Shown here one piece after another: positions 1-9,211 of a DNA stretch of 9,211 nt. The notes under the pieces are model-generated. The model saw only the letters and a list, made by a program, of their open reading frames with translations. It ran no database searches and had not been told where the DNA came from. Position numbers and translations under genes: made by a program. Position 1 is the stretch's first letter. Every line of letters starts with the position of its first letter. Origin of the DNA: a virus (Duplodnaviria; Heunggongvirae; Uroviricota; Caudoviricetes). Location of the stretch: the IMG/VR virus record IMGVR_UViG_2609460356_000005, positions 1-9,211 of that record. The stretch is one strand, 5' to 3'.

Positions 1-894
1 ATGGGGCTATTAGCAGACAAAACAAAATGGGTTCTTTTTTTGGCTTCCAGCAGTGAGCCGGAAGATCGGCATGTTTCTGATCTGGCCTTTGGGATTTACT
101 GCTTAGAAAATCGTGGAATTAATCCTGCTGATATTTTTATTTATATAGATGGAAACAACAGAGGAAATATACAAAAATTAATCTCAGTTGGCACTAACCA
201 TCAATATAATGTAAAAAGAAGCAGCGAATTTTTTTCGGATTGCGACGATAATACCCATGATAATATAGTTATATTTATAACGGGTCATGGAAGTATGCAT
301 GGATTGGACGCCCTCCCACCAATACCGCCCTATAGGTTACTTAATCGTATAAAAACAACGCCAGATTTAGATAGAGCGATAGTATATATGGGGCAGTGTT
401 ATGCTGGAATTTTCAATTACTTAGCAGCCGGAAGGCAGCGAAGGTCTGACGGAAAGATAGATCCTGAGGCGATTTTCATGGGGGCAACCAATCTCCATGA
501 AAGCATTAGCTCTTCTACCACAGAAAATATAAACGGCAACGATTACACTTGGGTCGCCAATCTTTTTTTGTTAAATACATTCAAGTGGATATCCAATCCT
601 TTCGATGTTGATGGCGATGGAAAAAACACGGTAATCGACTCATACAAATATGCCGGAACATCTTCAAATGTAATGAACATGAGTATAAAGATGAACTCCT
701 TTGTTCAATCAGTAATGCTTCACTCCCAATGGAGCACTGCAAAAACGGATTATGAATTGGATGATCAGAATCAAACAAAACTATTAATATACAGAGCATA
801 TGAGCAACAATATTTATCTGCTCTGAATATAAATTTTGTCCATCAAGAATGCTGGATTTTAAACTCCGTTCCGGCTCAGCAAGTCGAATATTAA
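1..894 (+). CDS. Clan CD cysteine peptidase, legumain (C13)/caspase-like, 297 aa, with C-terminal region carrying a calcium-loop-like DxDxDG motif
   Basis: ORF 1-894 (+). Ordered His-then-Cys dyad in the sequence context typical of clan CD peptidases: hydrophobic strand KWVLFLASSS, then IVIFITGHGS (His96, nt 286-288) and AIVYMGQCYAG (Cys133, nt 397-399). DVDGDGKNTVID (aa 202-213, nt 604-639) resembles a dockerin/EF-hand-type Ca-binding loop. AT-rich, unlike the adjacent phage genes. The window starts exactly on the ATG, so the true N-terminus cannot be verified. Confidence 0.5.
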   Translation: MGLLADKTKWVLFLASSSEPEDRHVSDLAFGIYCLENRGINPADIFIYIDGNNRGNIQKLISVGTNHQYNVKRSSEFFSDCDDNTHDNIVIFITGHGSMHGLDALPPIPPYRLLNRIKTTPDLDRAIVYMGQCYAGIFNYLAAGRQRRSDGKIDPEAIFMGATNLHESISSSTTENINGNDYTWVANLFLLNTFKWISNPFDVDGDGKNTVIDSYKYAGTSSNVMNMSIKMNSFVQSVMLHSQWSTAKTDYELDDQNQTKLLIYRAYEQQYLSALNINFVHQECWILNSVPAQQVEY

Positions 895-930
895 AGAATT
901 ACAGTGACAATTTGAAAAGTTCAAGCACTA

Positions 931-2592
931 TCAAAGCCCATTGAAATCAGCTAGCCGTTGTTTGTGACTGTCACTCATATCAAATGCAAAATCCTCGTGC
1001 TCAGCCTGGAAGGTGCCAAACGCCATTAACGCAGACACAGCCGGATCTATCTTGTTGGAGGATTTCTTTTTGTTGGGCTTGATGTTGGCATTGGCGTCGG
1101 ACTCCATCACCACGTTACCAATCGCCCAGGCCAGAACCGGATCACCGCGATGGCGCACTACCCTGCGGTTAACAAACACTTCAAAGGATTTCGCTACCGG
1201 ACTGAACCTGAGATAGGTTTGCGGGAATGGCTCAACATCAAGGCCCGCACCCTGTAGCTGGGTGCGCAGATGCGTAGCGTTCCACGTATCAAAGCCCACC
1301 AGCCGAATATTGAAGGTTTCAGCATCGCGCAGGATATCGTCACGAATGCGGTCATAGTCGATACAGTCGCCGGGTGTGGTGCGTATCCAGCCCGTTTTTA
1401 CCCACTGGCGATAGATGGCGCGGTTTTTGTTGGCGACGTTAAGCAGTTGCGCTTCCGGTAGATAGTGGCGGGTCAGAAGCCGGATCTCCCTGTCAAACGG
1501 GAAAGCGTAACTCACGCTGGTGATATCGCTGGTTGAGGACAGGTCAAACCCGGCATAACACTCCATTCCGACCAGCTCTTCTTCGTTATAGTCGAGTGCA
1601 CAGGCATCCCACGCGCCAGCCCCCATCCACGGCGTGGAGCCCTGACACCAGATATTGAAACGTTTGGTGAGCATTTCCACCCATTGCGACGGTACCCCCC
1701 GCGCTTTCTGGATGGTGGATTCCAGCTTCGCTGCGTCAACAGACACATGCAGGTTAGGGTTGGCCTTAATCCACATTTCCGGCTGCTCAACCTCAATTTC
1801 GTCGTCCAGCTCGTATATCAGGACAAACAGAGAATCGTTGCTCTCTTCCCCTGCCAGAATCTGGCAGCAGTAGTCATAATGCTGCTTACAGGCCGAGACT
1901 ACGTTACTCCCGGCGGTAGTGATGGCGAACAAAATTGCCTCAGGACGGGCGCCCATACCCAGCTCAAGCGCGGAATAAACGCCGTTATCCGGGTGAAGGT
2001 GGTACTCATCGACAATCGCCAGGCTGGGGTTAGTCCCTTCAATGGTGGCCGCTTTTGCCGCCAGCGGCTTTAACAGGCTGTTGCTCTTCGGGAAAATGAC
2101 CTTGTGTGCCTGAATACTGACGCGCTTTTTCAGCGGTTTTGACAGCAGGCACATCTGGCGGGCATCGTCGAACACGATTCGGGCCTGATCCCGGCTTACC
2201 GCCGCCGTGTAGATATCCTGCTGGCCCTTCTCCATCACCAGAAACCAGTTAGCCAGCATGGCGGCCACGGTGGATTTGGCATTCTTGCGCGGCACCTCAA
2301 TAAAGGCGCTGCTATACTTCCGGCGGCCTGACTCCCTGACTTTAAAGCCCAGCAGGTTAGCAAAGGCGAACTGCTGCCACGGCTCCAGCTCGATAGACTG
2401 CCCGCGCAACGGGCCTTTGACGTGAGGACAGAGCCGCGAGAACGCAATAAACCGCTCTACGGTCGCCGTATCGAACACATAACGGGGGTCATTCAGGTCT
2501 GAAAAGTACCTTTCCACGGCCTGTTTTACGCGCTTACAGGCCGGAATTTCGCCCGTTTTTATCGCGTTTGCGTACTCATTCCAGACGGTCAA
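931..2592 (-). CDS. terL: Phage terminase large subunit (TerL)
   Basis: 553-aa ORF. Deviant Walker A-like EVPRKNAKST and Walker B-like LAIVDEYH in the N-terminal ATPase half, with a C-terminal nuclease-type half. Lies directly downstream of a small terminase ORF that it overlaps by 17 nt (2576-2592). Overall resemblance to HK97-type large terminases is from memory. Confidence 0.9.
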   Translation of the reverse strand: MTVWNEYANAIKTGEIPACKRVKQAVERYFSDLNDPRYVFDTATVERFIAFSRLCPHVKGPLRGQSIELEPWQQFAFANLLGFKVRESGRRKYSSAFIEVPRKNAKSTVAAMLANWFLVMEKGQQDIYTAAVSRDQARIVFDDARQMCLLSKPLKKRVSIQAHKVIFPKSNSLLKPLAAKAATIEGTNPSLAIVDEYHLHPDNGVYSALELGMGARPEAILFAITTAGSNVVSACKQHYDYCCQILAGEESNDSLFVLIYELDDEIEVEQPEMWIKANPNLHVSVDAAKLESTIQKARGVPSQWVEMLTKRFNIWCQGSTPWMGAGAWDACALDYNEEELVGMECYAGFDLSSTSDITSVSYAFPFDREIRLLTRHYLPEAQLLNVANKNRAIYRQWVKTGWIRTTPGDCIDYDRIRDDILRDAETFNIRLVGFDTWNATHLRTQLQGAGLDVEPFPQTYLRFSPVAKSFEVFVNRRVVRHRGDPVLAWAIGNVVMESDANANIKPNKKKSSNKIDPAVSALMAFGTFQAEHEDFAFDMSDSHKQRLADFNGL

Positions 2593-2932
2593 GCTCGTCT
2601 TCCTCCTCCGTTTCCACCGGGTTCCGGCGGCGGCTTACCGGATCAAAGCCCAGCAGCGACGACATTTTAATCATGATTTTTTCAGCATCGGCCTTTGCGC
2701 TCAGCGCCGGATTTCGGCTCTCACCGCCCTGGCTGTTAACAATGCTGAACCCACGGCTGGCAAGGTCTTCCACGGCTTTGCGGTACATCGAATAGTTGAC
2801 GCAAAAAAGCTCAAGGTTGTTCCAGTCGGCGGGAGTCAAATCCCCGCGCTCCGCCAGTTGCTTCGCCTTCGCTTTCCACTGCTGCGCAGCTAACTCATCA
2901 AGGTAAGCTGGCGGTTTGGGTGGTCTTGCCAT
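2576..2932 (-). CDS. terS: Phage terminase small subunit (P27-family-like TerS), 118 aa
   Basis: Start placed at the internal ATG (2930-2932) giving MARPPKPPAYLDELAAQQWKAKAKQLAERGDLT..., a typical N-terminus for P27-type small terminases. Positioned between HNH and terL and overlapping terL. The longer ORF-track version (to 3100) adds a Gly-rich N-terminal extension that looks non-coding. Confidence 0.75.
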   Translation of the reverse strand: MARPPKPPAYLDELAAQQWKAKAKQLAERGDLTPADWNNLELFCVNYSMYRKAVEDLASRGFSIVNSQGGESRNPALSAKADAEKIMIKMSSLLGFDPVSRRRNPVETEEEDELDRLE

Positions 2933-3062
2933 AAAAATTTCTCGTTTCCGTCGCGTTTTATTTTCAAAAAAATCACCGTGCGTAAAAATTTGAGGGGGCG
3001 GGTGGTTCCTCGCTGAGAGGGGTTTGTCCTGAAAACCTCCCCCACCCCGTCCATTCGGCCTG

Positions 3063-3215
3063 TCAGCGGTTGCGAAAGCATTCCATAAGCTCCCGGTCAC
3101 GCTGGCTCATGCGCTTTGCTACGGGCTTCTTATGCGCTCTCTGTCTGGCTGGTTGCCATGACTCACGCTGCTTTATCAGCCCACTAATCAGCCGCTGCTG
3201 TTCCTGCTCAGTCAT
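3063..3215 (-). CDS. Small hypothetical protein (50 aa) between HNH and terS
   Basis: Not in the ORF track (below size cut-off). Hand translation from ATG at 3213-3215 gives MTEQEQQRLISGLIKQRESWQPARQRAHKKPVAKRMSQRDRELMECFRNR with stop at 3063-3065. A GAGG Shine-Dalgarno sits 6 nt upstream of the ATG, and the start overlaps the HNH stop in an ATGACTGA arrangement. Basic, helical-looking peptide of unknown function. Confidence 0.35.
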   Translation of the reverse strand: MTEQEQQRLISGLIKQRESWQPARQRAHKKPVAKRMSQRDRELMECFRNR

Positions 3216-3651
3216 TGTTTGCCTCATAGATCCAGTCGGTGCGATGACGTGCTGCTTCTTCCTGCTCGCGGAACTTACCGGCTTTACGCTGCTGCTTCGT
3301 CACCGGGTCTGTTGTGGTTGTCTTCCGTCCATGACAGGCAGCGCATAACGACTGGTGATTACTGGCGGGCCAGAACAGCACATCAGCTTCACCCTCGATA
3401 GGGATGATGTGATCGACGATAGTTGCCGATGCATAGACGCCAGCCTTGAGACAATGGACACACAGCGGATTAGCTTTTAGAAAATGACGACGGTATTCGC
3501 CCCAGCGGTTGGAGTAACCACGCTCTGTTCGCGTACCTCTTCGGCTGTCGCTTTGTCGGCGGGCATCCCGCTTATGCTCGTCACACTTGCCAGACTTCAC
3601 CCGTTTATTACATCCCGGCTCATTGCACCGGCGTAGTGGTTGCCACGGCAT
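3208..3651 (-). CDS. Phage HNH endonuclease (packaging-associated)
   Basis: 147-aa ORF with paired Cys motifs (CNEPGC...C, CVHC, CAAC) and an HNH core DHIIP...NHQSLCAACHGRKT. Located immediately upstream of terS/terL, the arrangement seen in HNH-dependent cos-packaging phages. Confidence 0.85.
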   Translation of the reverse strand: MPWQPLRRCNEPGCNKRVKSGKCDEHKRDARRQSDSRRGTRTERGYSNRWGEYRRHFLKANPLCVHCLKAGVYASATIVDHIIPIEGEADVLFWPASNHQSLCAACHGRKTTTTDPVTKQQRKAGKFREQEEAARHRTDWIYEANND

Positions 3652-3944
3652 CAGTACACCCCCACATCACGATAGACAGACCACAACGCAGAGACAGCCA
3701 TCGGTATCTCTTTGGCGTCGGTATCACCAATCATCGTGCGGTACTCGTACAGCTGAGATACGTACATCAGACAGCCAATCTTGATAGCTGGCGTAAACTC
3801 CAGCCCGTTATCAAACCGCTTGCCGATATGCTTCTGGCAAACCTCCAGCGCCGCATCGATGTACGCCTGTATCAACGTATCTTCGTAATCATCATCAATA
3901 CGGCAATGCAGCTTTGCTTCATCCAGGGTGATTTCTGCTGTCAT
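3651..3944 (-). CDS. gp6-like head-tail connector (adaptor) protein
   Basis: 97-aa ORF. The N-terminus MTAEITLDEAKLHCRIDDDYEDTLIQAYIDAALEVCQ matches the characteristic start of gp6/SPP1 gp15-type head-tail connector proteins (from memory). Its start overlaps the head-closure stop by 4 nt, and its stop overlaps the HNH start. Confidence 0.75.
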   Translation of the reverse strand: MTAEITLDEAKLHCRIDDDYEDTLIQAYIDAALEVCQKHIGKRFDNGLEFTPAIKIGCLMYVSQLYEYRTMIGDTDAKEIPMAVSALWSVYRDVGVY

Positions 3945-4279
3945 TTTTCCGTTCCTGTCTTGCAGAGAATTTCCAGCCGAGTACCTTCCGAATCAGGAAT
4001 AGGAGGCCCGATAATATTGAGAGTGCTGCCAGCAAACGGGCCAGTAAGCACTTTCAGACGGTTGGCTGCGGTAATATCACGGCGGAAACGCACCCAAACG
4101 CGGATCGTCGCTTCGGCAACCTCGGCACCTGACGCCATTAACTCTCGGCCACTGATCCCCTTAACCTCAGCCCATATGGTTTCCCCGTCTTCCCAGACCT
4201 GAACAACCTGACCGGACGGCTCCCTGTGGGTAGTGAATACCCGAATAGTGTCGCGGCTTCTCAGCCCCCCGGCTCTCAT
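3941..4279 (-). CDS. Phage head closure / head-tail joining protein
   Basis: 112-aa ORF. The pattern ...IRVFTTHREPSGQVVQVWEDGETIWAEVKGISGRELMASGAEVAEATIRVWVRFRRDI... resembles head-closure (SPP1 gp16-like) proteins. Translationally coupled to portal (4-nt overlap at 4276-4279). Confidence 0.7.
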   Translation of the reverse strand: MRAGGLRSRDTIRVFTTHREPSGQVVQVWEDGETIWAEVKGISGRELMASGAEVAEATIRVWVRFRRDITAANRLKVLTGPFAGSTLNIIGPPIPDSEGTRLEILCKTGTEK

Positions 4280-5511
4280 GCGTCACCTTCCTTGCCGTCT
4301 TTGCTGATCTTCACTTCCTGCTTCCATGCCTGGCTGAATTCGTCACCACCTTTACGCGGCGGCATCCCCTCGCGCTCACGGGCTTCGTTCGGGTTCATGA
4401 TCCCGTTCTTAATGCCTCGCTCATAAGTGGCGTAACGCTCGGTAGGTGTGGCACGGAGAAGGTCAGCAGAGTCAAACTCCACCTGATAGCGGGTTCCTGG
4501 AACCGGAGAGGCCACCAGCAAAGCAGATTTGATTTGTTGCTCGAAGTTCGCCAGCCACGGGCGCATGGTCATGGTGAGAAAGGCGCGGCTCGCTTCGCTG
4601 AAATTGCTGTAGGTGCTGTTGCTGTATTCCTGCAGGAAGATGGGCGACACATTGAACATGCGGGCAATGTCTTCAATGGAGAACCGGCGCGACGCCAGCC
4701 ATTCGGCATCCTGATTGCTCATGCCAAGCTGCTTGTAGTCCATGCCACCTTCAAGGATCGGCGTTTTCCCGGCATTTCTGGCACCTTTGTAGCGCTCCAG
4801 TGCGTCCAGAGCCTGCTTACCCTTCACGCTGTCGAGCCATTCAGCAGTAGTGACGACGCCCGCCGCCATCATGCCATCTTTCATAATGCTGGCACCGTGG
4901 CGCTGTTGGGCCAGACCTAACCCCAGCGCCTCACGGCACGTAGTAATAGGCGAACGCCCCAGAAAGCCATCATCGGTGGAGTAACGCAGGTGCAGAATCT
5001 CTTCCTGTAGATAGGTGCGCACAGCCCCGGTAAACGGCTCTGTAACGGTGTATTTGTACTTATGCTGGCCGATACGCTCAGGAACAACCGCCCCCGGCGC
5101 ATACGGGTGCAGGGATTGCGGCTGGCCGTCGCGGCCCCACTGGATCACCGCATAGGCGTTACCGTTCAGCAGACAATGGCGCATCATCGTGCGTTTAAAC
5201 TGATAAGGCGTCTGGCAGTCGTTCGGCTGCTCGTTCAGGAGAAAATCCACCGGGTGATTGCTCAGCCATTCTCGCGCCTCACGCCCGTTATCGTTGCGCA
5301 CGCGGTAGAGGTAGCAGGGCATTGTTGCCACCGCCTCACTGATAACTGACACGGCGTTCATGACCGCCGGCAGAGATTCCGCAGTACCCGCAGACACATA
5401 TTCGCCTGATCCGGTATTTGGAATCCCTGCCATCGCCAGAAACTCATCAATGGTCATGCTGCGCTGCTCAGAGGGTTCAGACTTACGGCCAAACGGCCAG
5501 ATATTCCACAT
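4276..5511 (-). CDS. Phage portal protein (HK97-family-like)
   Basis: 411-aa ORF of the size and composition of HK97-type portals, ending in a charged C-terminal tail (NPNEAREREGMPPRKGGDEF...). Sits between prohead protease and head-closure genes. An alternative start at Met19 (MTIDEFLAMAG) is possible. Confidence 0.85.
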   Translation of the reverse strand: MWNIWPFGRKSEPSEQRSMTIDEFLAMAGIPNTGSGEYVSAGTAESLPAVMNAVSVISEAVATMPCYLYRVRNDNGREAREWLSNHPVDFLLNEQPNDCQTPYQFKRTMMRHCLLNGNAYAVIQWGRDGQPQSLHPYAPGAVVPERIGQHKYKYTVTEPFTGAVRTYLQEEILHLRYSTDDGFLGRSPITTCREALGLGLAQQRHGASIMKDGMMAAGVVTTAEWLDSVKGKQALDALERYKGARNAGKTPILEGGMDYKQLGMSNQDAEWLASRRFSIEDIARMFNVSPIFLQEYSNSTYSNFSEASRAFLTMTMRPWLANFEQQIKSALLVASPVPGTRYQVEFDSADLLRATPTERYATYERGIKNGIMNPNEAREREGMPPRKGGDEFSQAWKQEVKISKDGKEGDA

Positions 5512-5512
5512 A

Positions 5513-6073
5513 TCAGAGCCCCGCTAATTCAGCCCAGCGGCGGCGGTTATCACCAGCCCGGCGCAGTTCAGGATATTGGGAGAAAAGCGAACGGTGCGCG
5601 ATTTCCACGCCAGACTCAGGATAAGCAGGCATAGAGGTAACGGTAATCTCCCGCAGTTCGGCAGCGGTAACAGTGCGCAGGTATGGAGACTGAGCAATAT
5701 CCCACGCCTCTTTCAGCGCCCGGAAACCAAAGCTCATGCCGGAGATATCCCCGCGCTCCACCAGCTCCAGCACATCGTTGCCAAGCTGGGTATTCGGCGG
5801 GGTCAGCTCGAAGCGCAGCCCGGTATCATCTTCTGACAGCACCAGCGTGCCGGATTTAGTGCGGCCCAGCAGCTGGGTATAGTTATGCTCGTACAGCGCA
5901 CGCACATCGCTACCGGATGCCAGGCTGTCTTTAAACGCTCCCGGCGCAAACTGCTCGCGGAACTCGTCCCAGATAATTTCAGAGAGACTGTTCCAGCGCA
6001 CGGCATAGCCCACCAGCTTTTTGTTGCTGGCGCTCACTTCGGAGGTACGGATTTCAAAATCGATTGTTTTCAT
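5513..6073 (-). CDS. Prohead (head maturation) protease, HK97 family
   Basis: 186-aa ORF immediately 5' of portal (stop 5513-5515, portal ATG 5509-5511). Contains an ISGMSFGF-type motif typical of HK97-family prohead proteases (from memory). GGAG Shine-Dalgarno 7 nt upstream of the ATG. Confidence 0.85.
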   Translation of the reverse strand: MKTIDFEIRTSEVSASNKKLVGYAVRWNSLSEIIWDEFREQFAPGAFKDSLASGSDVRALYEHNYTQLLGRTKSGTLVLSEDDTGLRFELTPPNTQLGNDVLELVERGDISGMSFGFRALKEAWDIAQSPYLRTVTAAELREITVTSMPAYPESGVEIAHRSLFSQYPELRRAGDNRRRWAELAGL

Positions 6074-6093
6074 TACTGGACTCCACAGAGGGC

Positions 6094-6116
6094 AAAAAGG
6101 GGCCGCAGCCCCTTAA
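6094..6116 (-). terminator. Putative intrinsic terminator/attenuator between capsid and protease genes
   Basis: Minus-strand reading AAGGGGC-TGCG-GCCCCTT followed by TTTGCCC: a GC-rich 5-7 bp stem with a 4-nt loop and a short T-run. Lies in the 51-nt gap between capsid stop (6125) and protease start (6073). Confidence 0.4.
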
Positions 6117-6124
6117 ACGTCAAA

Positions 6125-7291
6125 TCAGGAACCGGAGCCTGAAAGCTCAAGCACCTTGATGGCGTTGGAGTCCACCACACCACCGCCCAGGTATTTATCG
6201 GTATGCACCTTGTAGAAACCCGGCTCGGTGATGTTGTCAGGGCGGGTACGCACGCCAGTGGTGTGATCCACGATGAAATAGCCGCGCTTGAAGTCGCCTA
6301 CCGCGAGGAATGCTTTACCTGCCTCCGCATCCGGCATGGTTTCCAGATACTGAACAGGACGGCCCAGCAGCGTATCGGGAGAACCGGCAACCAGACGATC
6401 GCGCCAGATGTAATCCCCGTTGCCGTTTTTCAGCTTTTGCAGTTTGGCTGCGGTGTTGGAGTTCATCACCCATACGGCGTTTTTGCGGTATTTGGCTTTC
6501 AGCTTATACAGCAGGTCGATCAGGCCATCAGAGGAAACGTCAGCCGCTTCCATCTTCTCCAGCGTACCGAACGGACGGGTTTTGTCGGCAGTGGCCGCGC
6601 GAGGGTAAGACAGGAAGCCTTTGGATTTTTTATCACCGTCGCCGTTCACAAAGTCGCTTTCTTCGGTCGCGGTGAAGGTGTCGGCAATTTCAGAAGACAG
6701 CCAGCCCAAAATATCCACCTCGGAGAAGTCGAGAATCTCCTGAGTGGTTTTCGGGTAGGCGTAGATCGGGTTGAGTTTGATATCAACGCGCTCCATCTTC
6801 GGCGTACTGGTTTCGGTACGTGCCTCACCTTCGGTACCACGATTAACGGTAGTGCCGCCCACAGATACCAGCTTCTGGTATTCGTTGGTTTTGGTGGTCT
6901 TCACCGTTGCGATGGAGCGCATCACGCTATCATCCTGCAACTGGCGCATAATCTCTTTGTCCAGCTCAGGGATAACGGTATAGCCGCCATCAGCCTGCAC
7001 CAGCGTGGAGAGAGAACGGGTATCACCTGTCATGATGTAGTGGCGCAGCTCGTCGTTGCTTACTGGCTCACCTTCAACGGAAGTACCAGGCAGATTGCGC
7101 TGATCGTCGGCGACGGCTTCTAGACGGGTGATTTCAACTTCAAGCGCATCAGCCTGGGCGCGGAGTTCATCGAACTTTTTGCCCTCTTCTTCGTTCAGGC
7201 TGCGCTTTTCGGTGTCGGCTTTGTCCAGCATGGAACGCATCTGTGTTTTGAGTGCGGCTTTCTGCTGGCGTAATTCGAGTAGTTTCTTCAT
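6125..7291 (-). CDS. Major capsid protein, HK97 fold, with N-terminal delta/scaffold domain
   Basis: 388-aa ORF. The N-terminal ~100 aa is a charged coiled-coil-like region (MKKLLELRQQKAALKTQMRSMLDKADTEKRSLNEEEGKKFDELRAQADALEVEITRLEA) typical of the HK97 delta domain. The remainder has the size and character of HK97-type capsid proteins. Confidence 0.9.
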   Translation of the reverse strand: MKKLLELRQQKAALKTQMRSMLDKADTEKRSLNEEEGKKFDELRAQADALEVEITRLEAVADDQRNLPGTSVEGEPVSNDELRHYIMTGDTRSLSTLVQADGGYTVIPELDKEIMRQLQDDSVMRSIATVKTTKTNEYQKLVSVGGTTVNRGTEGEARTETSTPKMERVDIKLNPIYAYPKTTQEILDFSEVDILGWLSSEIADTFTATEESDFVNGDGDKKSKGFLSYPRAATADKTRPFGTLEKMEAADVSSDGLIDLLYKLKAKYRKNAVWVMNSNTAAKLQKLKNGNGDYIWRDRLVAGSPDTLLGRPVQYLETMPDAEAGKAFLAVGDFKRGYFIVDHTTGVRTRPDNITEPGFYKVHTDKYLGGGVVDSNAIKVLELSGSGS

Positions 7292-7448
7292 GGAGTGGTT
7301 TCCGTAACAATTAATGTTAAGACGTGAAACCAGCGCTTAGGGGGGAGGCCGTTAAATCTTTTTCTGCCTCTCGCAGGCTGTACTCGCTACAGCTTGACTT
7401 AACGGCCAGTGGCGGCTCACGTCTGAGTGCCACTTCTCAACATATACA

Positions 7449-7485
7449 TGAAAATAATAAAGAAAAGCCCGAATTTAATCGGGCT
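7449..7485 (-). terminator. Rho-independent terminator downstream of the AT-rich two-gene operon
   Basis: Minus strand reads AGCCCGA-TTAAAT-TCGGGCT followed by TTTCTTTATTATTTTCA (7-bp stem, 6-nt loop, U-rich tail). Located 39 nt after the stop of the 281-aa ORF (7524). Confidence 0.5.
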
Positions 7486-7523
7486 AAGCACTAATAAGCG
7501 CGAGGACAAATAATTTACACTTG

Positions 7524-8369
7524 TTAGTCGTAATACCCTTCCCACCAGCTTGAAGTATCTGCATGGAATGCCCCTTCATCACACTCTAAACTTTCAGGGG
7601 CATACACTGGACTTCTCACCTCGCAGGTAAATGGGAATGTCTCACTACCTACAGCACCAATATCATTTCGCAAATCGGAATTAGATCCCCATTGCAACCC
7701 GACACCTACAGAACCAATAACAGAGAAAACTATTTCAGTATCATTTATTTCTACTATTTTAACATCATCAACATACACTTCATCAACCGAACTGTGTGTC
7801 GATAAAATATCAATTGATGTTACAGTTTCAGTTATCGAACTATGAATCGCGGCCTCACTAACGGCTTCATATAGCTTATTAATTATCTCCTTATGACACT
7901 CATCAAGCTTGGTGAAAAGAGCGCTGATACAGCCTTCAACCTCTCCGACCATTTGGAGGCCAGCATCATCATTAATTGGGAAAATATTTTCGCTGATGTG
8001 AGTAAATTTATTTAATGAATTGAATGCGTCACGTAACCTCGGAAAAACCCCAGCAACATTTACATCAAGCTCTTCCCTGACATATTCATCACTTAACCCA
8101 CCCTGGATTATATATTTGTAAGAGTCTTTTCTTGAGACCTGCTCTCTTTCATTCAAGCCAGGGAACCAATCACATGACTGAACATTTTTATCAGGTGCCA
8201 TGCGTTTTATGACGTGTAAAAATAGTTCTCTAAGTGCATAGGCATAATTACTGAAGCGAAGTTGATTATTTACATCTAAAAGATTGTAGATCGCAGAGTC
8301 AAACAATTGCCGTTCAAACTCTCCTTCCAGATGTTTATTGATCATCTGTAAATTATCGTTAGTTCGCAT
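7524..8369 (-). CDS. Hypothetical protein, 281 aa, AT-rich cargo gene (second gene of two-gene operon)
   Basis: ORF with ATG at 8367-8369 preceded by a GAGGAAG Shine-Dalgarno; 23-bp gap from the upstream small ORF. No family recognised. Contains an R-x4-H motif (RELFLH, aa 47-52) that could be, but need not be, a HEPN-type signature. AT-rich composition contrasts with the capsid module. Confidence 0.6.
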   Translation of the reverse strand: MRTNDNLQMINKHLEGEFERQLFDSAIYNLLDVNNQLRFSNYAYALRELFLHVIKRMAPDKNVQSCDWFPGLNEREQVSRKDSYKYIIQGGLSDEYVREELDVNVAGVFPRLRDAFNSLNKFTHISENIFPINDDAGLQMVGEVEGCISALFTKLDECHKEIINKLYEAVSEAAIHSSITETVTSIDILSTHSSVDEVYVDDVKIVEINDTEIVFSVIGSVGVGLQWGSNSDLRNDIGAVGSETFPFTCEVRSPVYAPESLECDEGAFHADTSSWWEGYYD

Positions 8370-8392
8370 TAACTCTTCCTCTGTAGACTTTA

Positions 8393-8737
8393 TTATCTTT
8401 CGACATTAAGCCAGTGAGACACAGCGTTTCCGCTGGATATTCTCGCATCATAAATGATTGACCTCAAATCTCCATTTGAACGTGCTGGATTGGACAGTTG
8501 TGCAGCAACATCATTGAGAAGTTCAATGTAAGAACGCAGTTCATCTGGTAAGTCAGCATATGGTGCATCCATAGCGTCAATGTAATCCTGATTTTCCCTT
8601 CGCTCAGCCAGAACAAAAGCCCTTAAAGCCAGATAGTCTGTCAGCGTTACTCCAGTTTTCTCATTCAGTTCTTCGATTGCACTATGCAGAAATTGGATAC
8701 CCTGAAACTTGTCTTTATGATTACCTAAAATTTCCAT
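8393..8737 (-). CDS. Hypothetical small protein, 114 aa (first gene of two-gene operon)
   Basis: ORF track starts at a TTG (8749). The ATG at 8735-8737 (MEILGNHKDKF...) with GAGG 6 nt upstream is preferred. Acidic, helical-looking protein with no recognised family. Stop TAA at 8393-8395. Confidence 0.55.
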   Translation of the reverse strand: MEILGNHKDKFQGIQFLHSAIEELNEKTGVTLTDYLALRAFVLAERRENQDYIDAMDAPYADLPDELRSYIELLNDVAAQLSNPARSNGDLRSIIYDARISSGNAVSHWLNVER

Positions 8738-8757
8738 CTGTAGCCTCAAAAAATAGA

Positions 8758-8785
8758 AATATACGTTTAAGTGTTCACCTGTTCA
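8758..8785 (-). promoter_or_regulatory. Putative sigma70-type promoter of the two-gene operon
   Basis: Minus strand: -35-like TGAACA (plus 8780-8785), 16-nt spacer, -10-like TATATT (plus 8758-8763), about 20 nt upstream of the GAGG/ATG of the small ORF. The -35 overlaps the tandem AGGTGAAC repeats. Prediction by eye only. Confidence 0.3.
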
Positions 8786-8878
8786 CCTTTGCATTTTTCC
8801 TATTTAAATTCATTGGGTTACAGGGTGAAGACTATAATTTTAAGTATTCACTAGTATTCACCCTAACCCTTCACCTTT
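8773..8878. repeat. Cluster of short direct and inverted GTTCACC-type repeats in the operon upstream region
   Basis: Exact tandem GTTCACCT x2 (8773-8780, 8781-8788). Exact AGTATTCAC x2 with 10-bp periodicity (8843-8851, 8853-8861). TTCACCTTT at 8782-8790 and 8870-8878. Inverted copy GGGTGAAG at 8823-8830. Confidence 0.55.
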
Positions 8879-8880
8879 TA

Positions 8881-9211
8881 GGTGATGCTGCCAACTTACT
8901 GATTTAGTGTATGATGGTGTTTTTGAGGTGCTCCAGTGGCTTCTGTTTCTATCAGCTGTCCCTCCTGTTCAGCTACTGACGGGGTGGTGCGTAATGGCAA
9001 AAGCACCGCCGGACATCAGCGCTATCTCTGCTCTCACTGCCGTAAAACATGGCAACTGCAGTTCACTTACACCGCTTCTCAACCCGGTACGCACCAGAAA
9101 ATCATTGATATGGCCATGAATGGCGTTGGATGCCGGGCAACAGCCCGCATTATGGGCGTTGGCCTCAACACGATTTTACGTCACTTAAAAAACTCAGGCC
9201 GCAGTCGGTAA
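8881..9211 (+). mobile_element. IS1 insertion sequence, left end and insA (element continues beyond window)
   Basis: Sequence from 8881 (GGTGATGCTGCCAACTTACTGATTTAGTGTATGATGGTG...) matches the IS1 left terminal inverted repeat and leader as remembered. It is followed by the InsA reading frame. A full IS1 is about 768 bp, so it would extend to about 9648. Confidence 0.9.
8936..9211 (+). CDS. insA: IS1 InsA (transposition regulator / N-terminal part of InsAB' transposase)
   Basis: 91-aa [94 protein letters not shown], recognised as IS1 InsA (zinc-finger CPSC...CSHC plus helix-turn-helix). Stop TAA at 9209-9211. Confidence 0.9.

Follow-up and report, generated by a model that had tools for sequence, protein, structure and literature searches.

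The nested inverted repeats that lie upstream of the capsid gene in this viral DNA are very probably the DNA image of a functional, conserved, cis-acting 5' leader RNA belonging to the capsid/packaging operon. The window discussed here is the whole stretch of 9,211 nucleotides (positions 1 to 9,211 of IMG/VR virus record IMGVR_UViG_2609460356_000005). As to how the leader would act, we lean, with modest confidence, towards a translational switch in which three helices named P1, P3 and P4 compete with one another, with an operon-wide effect exerted through polarity.

The capsid-forming islands to which this DNA belongs, the cf-PICIs, make small capsids themselves and obtain nothing but the tails from phages. 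On its minus strand the window is a complete cf-PICI packaging module, preceded by the terminator of upstream accessory genes. The genes from the protease onward were assigned by a Pfam search of the window:

7466..7485, minus strand: intrinsic terminator hairpin of the upstream accessory genes, AGCCCGA-TTAAAT-TCGGGCT, with a T-run (terminator prediction)
7289..7291, minus strand: capsid start codon (open reading frame call and Pfam assignment)
7291..6125, minus strand: major capsid gene (PF05065, E = 8e-69), the first gene of the packaging operon
6073..5513, minus strand: prohead protease
5511..4276, minus strand: portal
4279..3941, minus strand: head completion
3944..3651, minus strand: connector
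3651..3208, minus strand: HNH
3100..2576, minus strand: TerS
2592..931, minus strand: TerL

Complete E. coli genomes carry this module inside islands of about 15 kb with an integrase, an AlpA-like helix-turn-helix regulator and a primase, located at fis/yhdJ and hpt/gcd, and tail genes are absent from these islands. The criteria applied were capsid, protease, portal, head-tail adaptors, HNH, TerS and TerL, no tail or lysis genes, and the presence of integrase, AlpA and primase; the module together with the full E. coli islands matches the published cf-PICI definition (bioRxiv 10.1101/2022.09.08.507074). Two accessory genes lie upstream of the packaging operon in the window, one of them encoding an Argonaute-associated-nuclease-like protein. 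A cos-like region of G-tract and C-tract is found in the HNH-TerS gap, and a breakpoint of homology to a variable region is found at about 7519, upstream of the terminator and outside the repeats. From the terminator to the capsid ATG runs a non-coding stretch of 174 nt, which is the leader region.

A first-pass annotation had described three concentric inverted repeats between the operon terminator and the capsid start, and all three are present in that position (terminator 7485..7466, capsid start 7291). The outer pair (7320-7327, AGACGTGA, and 7417-7424, TCACGTCT) matches at 8 of 8 positions; the middle pair (7347-7355 and 7399-7407) is a perfect 9 bp and extends to 12 nt at 92% (7347-7358 and 7396-7407); the inner pair (7374-7382 and 7388-7396) matches over 9 nt at 89% around a 5-nt loop. 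Such nesting goes beyond chance: among 2000 dinucleotide-preserving shuffles of 7320-7424, 95.5% held no perfect inverted repeat of at least 8 nt and 4.5% held one, and two nested repeats of this kind appeared in none of the 2000 shuffles of the 105-nt region. Folding of the minus-strand transcript, which the annotation had proposed as a check, likewise came out in favour of structure, with the capsid-sense RNA of 7292-7465 reaching -59.9 kcal/mol (z = -4.9; as good in 0 of 200 shuffles) and the plus-strand fold of the same region being weaker (z = -2.8). The concentric arrangement, however, holds only for the two inner repeats. The middle and inner pairs both form in the minimum free energy (MFE) fold, whereas the arms of the outer pair do not enclose them and are each taken up in a separate local hairpin with which the outer pairing competes; in this fold AGACGUGA makes up the loop and 3' arm of P1, and UCACGUCU belongs to the 5' strand of P4.

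Relatives of the leader were gathered from two sources. A capsid-protein scan with one genome per species gave 80 loci from Enterobacterales and Orbales, 30 of which carry a recognisable copy of the leader, and a pattern scan of IMG/VR added 119 further contigs, mostly of 14-18 kb and thus of cf-PICI size. Over genomes and IMG/VR together, 146 of 150 occurrences of the motif lie directly upstream of the MKKL[LI]ELR capsid gene at a fixed distance, and the remaining four are at contig ends or have no open reading frame called. The leader occupies this place in more than 100 distinct homologues from Enterobacterales. Each element holds a single copy, the motif starts about 115-145 nt upstream of the ATG in the genome loci, and the total length of the leader ranges from 122 to 152 nt across homologues. 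The 112 distinct leaders were reduced to 82 representatives of less than 95% identity, whose alignment (A2) yielded a covariance model (R1) that matches the window exactly once and finds no match in 49 related capsid loci with other leaders. Islands of Escherichia, Citrobacter, Serratia and Proteus have leaders identical over 25+11 nt despite capsid proteins that are just 68-72% identical, and the Xenorhabdus leader is nearly identical over the same 25+11 nt.

The leader appears to be new. A phage collection gave leader-wide matches in three records only, all of them cf-PICI-like and one described as a 16.5-kb 'induced prophage'; beyond these three, complementarity to phage genomes was limited to short matches at chance level (E = 7). 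A cmscan of the whole window against Rfam 15 (E<=1) returned nothing at 7289-7465 and two chance-level matches at 7960-8027 and 4160-4299. A full-text literature search for the P1 sequence string retrieved no paper, and the cf-PICI literature that was compared (including bioRxiv 10.1101/2022.09.08.507074) describes the operon and no promoter, leader or expression control.

Directly in front of the leader lies a block with the features of a promoter:

7439..7466, minus strand: promoter-like block, consisting of a -35-like TTTTCT (7466..7461), a 16-nt A/T-rich spacer and a -10-like TATGTT (7444..7439)

The -10-like hexamer ends 5 nt upstream of the first base of P1, which places the putative transcription start at or next to the P1 base. 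Numbered from that base in the 82 representatives, T-11, A-10 and T-6 are invariant, T-7 is present in 98%, and the TTT at -33..-31 is conserved in 98-100%. The consensus of the homologues is a -35 of TTTACT or TTTTCT, 16 nt, and a -10 of TATcTT (TATGTT in the window), and two homologues have TAAATT in place of the block at the same distance. Positions 1, 2 and 6 of the hexamer are the most conserved, as expected of a sigma-70 -10 element; spacing and the T/A/T pattern conform to sigma-70, with a weak match of 7-8/12 that lies below the scanner threshold. Judged from these sequence features, a weak sigma-70-type promoter probably starts the transcript at or within 1-2 nt of the P1 base. The U-tract of the terminator (7465..7456) overlaps the -35-like hexamer, and an equivalent G-rich stem with T-run occupies the same place in many homologues. 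The promoter-like block is common to all capsid-first cf-PICI operons examined, including its spacer TTATTATTTTTCATG, whose unusual conservation suggests that a DNA-binding regulator of the promoter probably exists. Two other readings of this neighbourhood were rejected. P1 contains the TGGCAC of a sigma-54 promoter (TGGCAC-N5-TTGC), but with TG instead of GC 10 nt downstream, and the variant class, which has TGACAC, loses the GG; CATGTATAT, read as a LexA box, is a half-site only.

Downstream of the putative start, the leader is composed of the following elements:

7409..7433, minus strand: P1, the 5'-proximal hairpin of 25 nt, GUGGC-A-CUCA-GACG-UGAG-CC-GCCAC (covariation, conservation)
7347..7407, minus strand: P2, the variable middle domain, closed by the 12-bp stem GGCCGUUAAGUC/GAUUUAACGGCC, the outer 9 bp of which form the middle inverted repeat
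7377..7393, minus strand: P2a, apical hairpin GCUGUA-GCGAG-UACAGC, the core of the inner inverted repeat, found in one P2 class
7364..7376, minus strand: P2b, second apical hairpin CUGC-GAGAG-GCAG, in the same P2 class as P2a
7333..7346, minus strand: C/U-rich single-stranded linker, UCCCCCCUAAGCGC (alignment, predicted folds)
7320..7332, minus strand: the box (segment 3), UGGUUUCACGUCU, which is the P4 5' strand and the complement of the P1 3' half, and holds the outer-pair arm 7327..7320
7296..7332, minus strand: P4, the hairpin adjoining the ribosome-binding site, UGGUUUC-A-CGU ... ACG-GAAACCA (RNAalifold de novo, pairing)

RNAalifold finds P1, P2 and P4 unguided. None of 500 column shuffles reaches the covariation score observed for the whole structure, and when the 3' partners are slid by 1-3 columns as a control, pairing falls to 34-45%. 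P1 is paired in 100% of 81 distinct sequences, with both partners replaced in three pairs (two from G-C to A-U and one from A-U to C-G), and is identical in 98 of 109 distinct leaders; its variants, GUGAC/GUCAC, CUCC/GGAG and AUGGC/GCCAU, are all fully compensated and no others occur. The IMG/VR pattern had permitted 32 combinations at five P1 positions, of which three were encountered, all of them compensated. A metagenome scan with the P1 loop left unconstrained gave mostly chance matches and two new single-base variants, both wobble-compatible. The closing stem of P2, which follows P1 after a gap of 1-4 nt, is of a different character: all 12 of its pairs have changed on both sides, with up to five pair types per position and 90.5% of cells paired, and its interior falls into 29 unrelated sequence classes of 40-75 nt. 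The inner repeat noted at first is restricted to one P2 class, within which P2a appears as GCUGU/ACAGC, GCUGC/GCAGC and GCUGC/GUAGC and P2b covaries as CUGC/GCAG, CUGA/UCAG, CUGU/GCAG and CGGA/UCCG. The linker is pyrimidine-rich in nearly all homologues and unpaired in each predicted fold. A riboswitch was rejected because P2, the sole sizeable domain, falls into 29 unrelated classes and leaves no conserved ligand core, and Rfam gave no match; a plus-strand open reading frame of 56 aa (7324..7494) was set aside as non-coding, since the indels among homologues are not multiples of three.

When the helices are read on the capsid-sense strand, G.U pairs number 79 against 23 A.C, an excess which indicates that the functional strand is the capsid-sense RNA and which speaks against both a DNA palindrome and an antisense transcript. 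The structured RNA leader that had been suggested from the window is strongly supported by this excess, by the promoter-like block upstream and by covariation in more than 80 non-redundant homologues, the paired positions of P1 and P2 being conserved or covarying in relatives as the proposed comparative alignment was meant to reveal. The other two suggestions, a binding site for a dimeric late-gene regulator and a recombination or packaging site, fared worse. Read as DNA, the outer and middle palindromes would be operators for a dimeric or looping regulator, a cruciform, or a packaging or recombination site, and both the presence of perfect inverted repeats near a promoter and the unusually conserved spacer would fit such a reading. 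However, the repeats, the outer arms included, lie downstream of the putative start, the distance between arms varies among homologues, and the sequence of the middle palindrome has been fully replaced while complementarity was kept and G.U pairs were used, which is unlike a protein operator. Nor is a packaging or recombination site supported: the cos-like region and the breakpoint near 7519 both lie outside the repeats. We therefore regard a DNA-level site as very improbable and take the leader to act as RNA.

Two adjacent stem-loops directly behind a promoter, in a mobile element related to HK97/HK022-type phages, also call to mind the put sites of HK022, in which putL comprises about 70 nt with two stem-loops just downstream of PL (PMC9378689). 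On that model P1 and P2 would act on RNA polymerase or on Rho/Nus and make the 6.4-kb operon resistant to termination, in the manner of put or nut. The 1-4 nt spacing of the two hairpins immediately after the promoter, an invariant P1, as might be expected if it met a conserved host partner such as RNA polymerase, and a C-rich unstructured linker that could load Rho all speak for it. Yet P2 is hypervariable, far too much so for polymerase docking. The put RNA acts on the beta' zinc-binding domain of RNA polymerase, which then reads through downstream terminators, and there is little in the operon to override: no convincing intrinsic terminator is predicted inside it on the minus strand, the whole window giving 8 weak sites where 10.3 are expected. 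At E<=10 the leader covariance model matches nothing in the complete HK022 genome, nor is there an Rfam match, and the proposal leaves the box, P4 and their linkage to P1 unaccounted for, the conserved elements connected to the ribosome-binding site being additional to anything in put. An elongation element is thus improbable. A lambda-type nut site was rejected as well, from the sequence and the alignments, as no boxA (of the CGCUCUUA kind) is visible on the sense strand and GCGCTTAG occurs on the opposite strand only and is not conserved.

What such a model omits is the 3' part of the leader. The 3' strand of P4 covers the weak Shine-Dalgarno GGA (7303..7301, minus strand), and segment 4, ACGGAAACCA, includes it. 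GGA or GAG is the sole Shine-Dalgarno-like triplet, at an effective spacing of 7 nt, and P4 ends 4 nt before the AUG; the mean unpaired probability at -14..-9 is 0.10. P4 is 94% paired, its changes are one-sided and lead to wobble pairs (U-A to U.G, G-C to G.U), and no double compensatory change was seen. A CsrA site at ACGGA was dismissed, GAG replacing GGA in more than 13 homologues. The box, which forms the 5' side of P4, hardly varies: GGUUUCACGUC is invariant save for an A-to-C change that accompanies the P1 variant and a U-to-C change outside the P1-pairing core (L156), and when IMG/VR was scanned for substitutions at four further box positions, the bases after UUUC, no genuine element emerged, all 20 matches being unrelated.

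The same box is complementary to P1. Segment 2, the 3' half of P1 (7424..7413, AGACGUGAGCCG), holds the other arm of the outer repeat, 7424..7417, and the outer pair is, in the modelled folds, an alternative long-range helix, P3, in which the 3' half of P1 is predicted to pair with the 5' strand of P4 and which lies outside the ground-state fold. P3 can be extended to 12 bp, since the CC that is bulged in P1 and the G next to it pair with the invariant UGG of the box; pairing of this CC with the GG of the box would explain why it is invariant in P1. The variant P1 with CUCC...GGAG always occurs with UUUCCCGUC in the box instead of UUUCACGUC. Comparing P1 type with box type gives 98 standard/standard and 10 variant/variant leaders and none that is mixed, with the variants spanning three P2 classes, so that the two types are perfectly linked across the 29 middle domains. 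The only variant lineage changes A10 to C, U15 to G and the box A to C together, by which P1 and P3 are both left intact; the varying box position is a bulge in P4, and thus P4 does not account for the change. Single changes in the P1 loop also retain P3 through G.U pairs (A12 to G in two lineages, C13 to U once). These substitutions suggest that the complementarity of P3 is selected. The support for P3 consists of one compensatory event, shared by 9 of 81 distinct sequences that probably make up one lineage, and three wobble-compatible transitions. More generally, bases common to two helices are invariant, and bases that belong to one helix (P2, and P1 pairs 1:25 and 4:22) drift by simple compensation. 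Frozen two-helix bases beside drifting single-helix bases are, as far as sequence comparison goes, the pattern to be expected of a switch.

In the switch that we favour, four segments would compete: segment 1 (the 5' arm of P1), segment 2 (its 3' half), segment 3 (the box) and segment 4 (with the Shine-Dalgarno), the freely evolving P2 hairpin domain and the C-rich linker separating segment 2 from segment 3. The stable state would pair 1:2 (P1) and 3:4 (P4) and bury the ribosome-binding site, giving low translation of the capsid gene; Rho-dependent polarity could then reduce expression of the whole operon. Were segment 1 to be occupied or P1 opened, 2:3 (P3) would form, P4 would be blocked and the ribosome-binding site would open. 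The parts of this scheme that we infer are the site at which transcription starts, the identity of the 'on' state, the involvement of Rho, and whether a trigger exists and what it is.

Energy calculations give the scheme a direction. For essentially all 82 homologues the predicted minimum is state A (P1+P2+P4), which lies on average 6.1 kcal/mol below the best fold that contains P3. When the first 10 nt are forced to be single-stranded, the mean probability of P3 rises from 0.02 to 0.50, exceeding 0.5 in 40 of the 82 homologues, and the Shine-Dalgarno region becomes more accessible (0.33 instead of 0.10). These predictions, which are only moderately decisive, are consistent with a leader that would be closed by default and would open on occupancy of segment 1. 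Against a switch, state A forms first during transcription and the leader would not leave one state unless something triggered it, P3 dominates in only about half of the homologues with segment 1 blocked, and the Shine-Dalgarno is weak (GGA or GAG). Within the window, the search for an antisense or trans partner of segment 1 or the box gave chance-level matches only. Nor did a leader peptide qualify as the trigger: its only candidate is a 10-codon open reading frame (ATGTATATGTTGAGAAGTGGCACTCAGACGTGA) from CATG, which is upstream of both the putative start and the -10-like hexamer, has no Shine-Dalgarno, lacks the ATG in about a quarter of cases (G at -14 in 61 of 82) and loses its stop in the variant class.

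The stability of state A can also be read as that of a leader which does not switch at all. P1 would then be a 5'-terminal stabiliser that shields the long late mRNA against 5'-end-dependent decay, P4 would fix a low rate of initiation, conservation would reflect the binding of a protein, and P3 would go unused; the binder could come from the host or the cf-PICI, possibly as autogenous control by a product of the capsid operon. Several observations suit this arrangement. The -10-like hexamer puts P1 at the 5' end; in cf-PICIs with a short leader, too, a hairpin immediately follows the shared promoter block; state A clearly has the lowest energy, by a mean of 6 kcal/mol; and the unpaired A6, C19 and C20 and the P1 loop, all invariant, fit contact with a protein. 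Segment 1 and the box, moreover, share UC[A/C] and change together, and could be two copies of a protein-binding motif. The likeness to 5' stabilisers of the ompA type extends to a stable hairpin predicted within 1-2 nt of the mRNA 5' end of a highly expressed gene, but the leader keeps 25 nt unchanged from genus to genus, and these are complementary to a second conserved box; we know of no requirement for sequence conservation in 5' stabiliser hairpins, and a generic one would drift in sequence like P2. A static leader would, furthermore, need an additional cause for the uninterrupted run of 9-12 bases over which P1 and the box are complementary, and for their exact co-substitution, and the conservation of C19/C20 is already accounted for by pairing with the invariant GG of the box. 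For these reasons we consider it unlikely and retain the switch as the preferred reading.

Parts of the proposed switch have counterparts in known systems. With attenuators of the trp type the leader shares the mutually exclusive 1:2, 2:3 and 3:4 pairings and a first hairpin that sequesters the segment able to disrupt the last one. It differs from them in that there is no leader peptide, segment 1 is at the 5' end, a variable domain of 40-75 nt separates segments 2 and 3, and the 3:4 hairpin lacks a U-tract and covers the Shine-Dalgarno, so that the output would be translational; no terminator was called at P4, which is followed by CACUCCAUG with no U-run. The hok mRNA of hok/sok loci, with its tac, ucb and fbi elements, is in concept the nearest precedent for three-way covariation that reveals alternative folds. 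It offers another likeness, namely a 5'-terminal element whose alternative local and long-range pairings gate access to the ribosome-binding site, and Gultyaev, Franch and Gerdes reportedly inferred those alternatives in 1997 from coupled three-way covariations. In contrast to hok, the leader has its long-range partner within itself and has no known antisense RNA partner and no evident processing of a 3' end, and the two are not related in sequence or family.

A comparison is also afforded by the cf-PICIs themselves, in which at least three leader types stand behind the shared promoter block. The short type, of about 40 nt, has the 5' hairpin only and an open, A/C-rich ribosome-binding region; the existence of related cf-PICIs with such a leader indicates that the folded leader is an add-on and is not essential for the operon. 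A 'type 2' leader of about 140 nt in Xenorhabdus and Photorhabdus has a predicted minimum with a long-range helix, GCUG..CAUGUAGG / CCUGCAUG..CAGC, that encloses a stable middle hairpin and a C-rich tract and is predicted to compete with a hairpin adjacent to the Shine-Dalgarno. By analogy, this architecture, built from unrelated sequence, supports the view that long-range pairing between the 5' end and the ribosome-binding site is functional.

The leader is apparently a new RNA family whose general kind is already known. No other strongly conserved non-coding feature was found at the start of the packaging operon, and the leader provides a 145-nt target for experiments on the timing of capsid production, a candidate for an Rfam family, and a marker sequence by which this cf-PICI lineage may be recognised in genomes and metagenomes. 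A bolder possibility, which we put forward only tentatively, is that the leader is a three-state RNA switch serving as a late-gene checkpoint, in which a protein or RNA signal supplied by the helper phage, the island or the host would open the 5' hairpin or occupy it, whereupon P3 would license translation of the capsid gene and expression of the operon. If this were true, the checkpoint would be a riboregulator of a new class and would supply the missing link in the timing of capsid production by cf-PICIs.

Conservation of the leader, the RNA directly upstream of the capsid ATG, can be followed beyond this island. Against some E. coli islands the window shows 98% identity over the end of the protease gene, the capsid gene, the leader and the terminator, and this identity ends sharply at ~7519 (7519/7520), the edge of the accessory-gene hotspot. 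Since the shared segment spans both leader and terminator before it breaks, the two travel with the packaging module. The features on either side that matter here are as follows.

2576-3100, minus strand: TerS, mechanical ORF of 174 aa with a GTG start
~2940-3075, minus strand, HNH-TerS intergenic: G-tract GGACGGGGTGGGGGAGG and matching C-tract CCACCCGCCCCCTC, then an A/T-rich stretch
7524-8369, minus strand: predicted nuclease, 281 aa (PADLOC Aga_Nuclease, E = 1e-84; Pfam pP_pnuc_1 and pP_pnuc_2)
8393-8749: unannotated ORF of 118 aa, neighbouring the nuclease gene

The nuclease gene is located in the variable accessory hotspot, immediately upstream of the packaging operon. By family match its product is a predicted pPIWI/Argonaute-associated nuclease; within the window there is no Argonaute gene next to it.

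The first-pass annotation had considered a packaging-related site among the possible roles of the inverted repeats in the leader. Judged from its sequence, the G-tract/C-tract region is likely the cos site of the island, which counts against that role for the repeats. The TerS homologue in RefSeq (P27-family TerS) is 118 aa long, versus 174 aa for the mechanical ORF, and a shorter TerS start would free space upstream for the cos-like region.

Other cf-PICIs carry different leaders. In those of Xenorhabdus and Photorhabdus (L032, L038, L041, L052, L056, L059 and L077), a second long leader ('type 2'), unrelated to the one studied here, precedes the capsid ATG by about 140 nt. This leader, which may be another new RNA motif, combines an analogous long-range helix with a stable middle hairpin, a C-rich tract and a Shine-Dalgarno-adjacent hairpin. 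Xenorhabdus kozodoii (L035) has a tandem pair of capsid genes (1441-2640; 3218-4516), the first with a short leader and the second (3362..4516) with a full copy of the leader under study upstream and the protease downstream.

Across leader types, the hexamer UCAGAC is repeated in the apical loops of otherwise unrelated hairpins: the P1 loop (window 7426..7420), the P2 loops of L005, L023, L114 and L187, and the middle hairpin of L041, L052 and L059. Leaders of the variant P1 class, with its CUCC/GGAG helix, lack this hexamer in P1. Some leader variants (L016, L021, L104, L135, L177 and L197) have GAGAUGCAGAAAAAG in the P2b region. Its ATG shares the reading frame of the capsid gene, so that a mechanical first-ATG ORF call adds ~26 spurious capsid residues (MQKK...).

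The promoter-like block at ~7439-7466 (minus strand), including its spacer TTATTATTTTTCATG, is kept upstream of the capsid gene across cf-PICIs with wholly different leaders (L028-L077). Spacer conservation is unusual for sigma-70 promoters, and its occurrence here suggests a putative DNA-binding regulator of the late operon.
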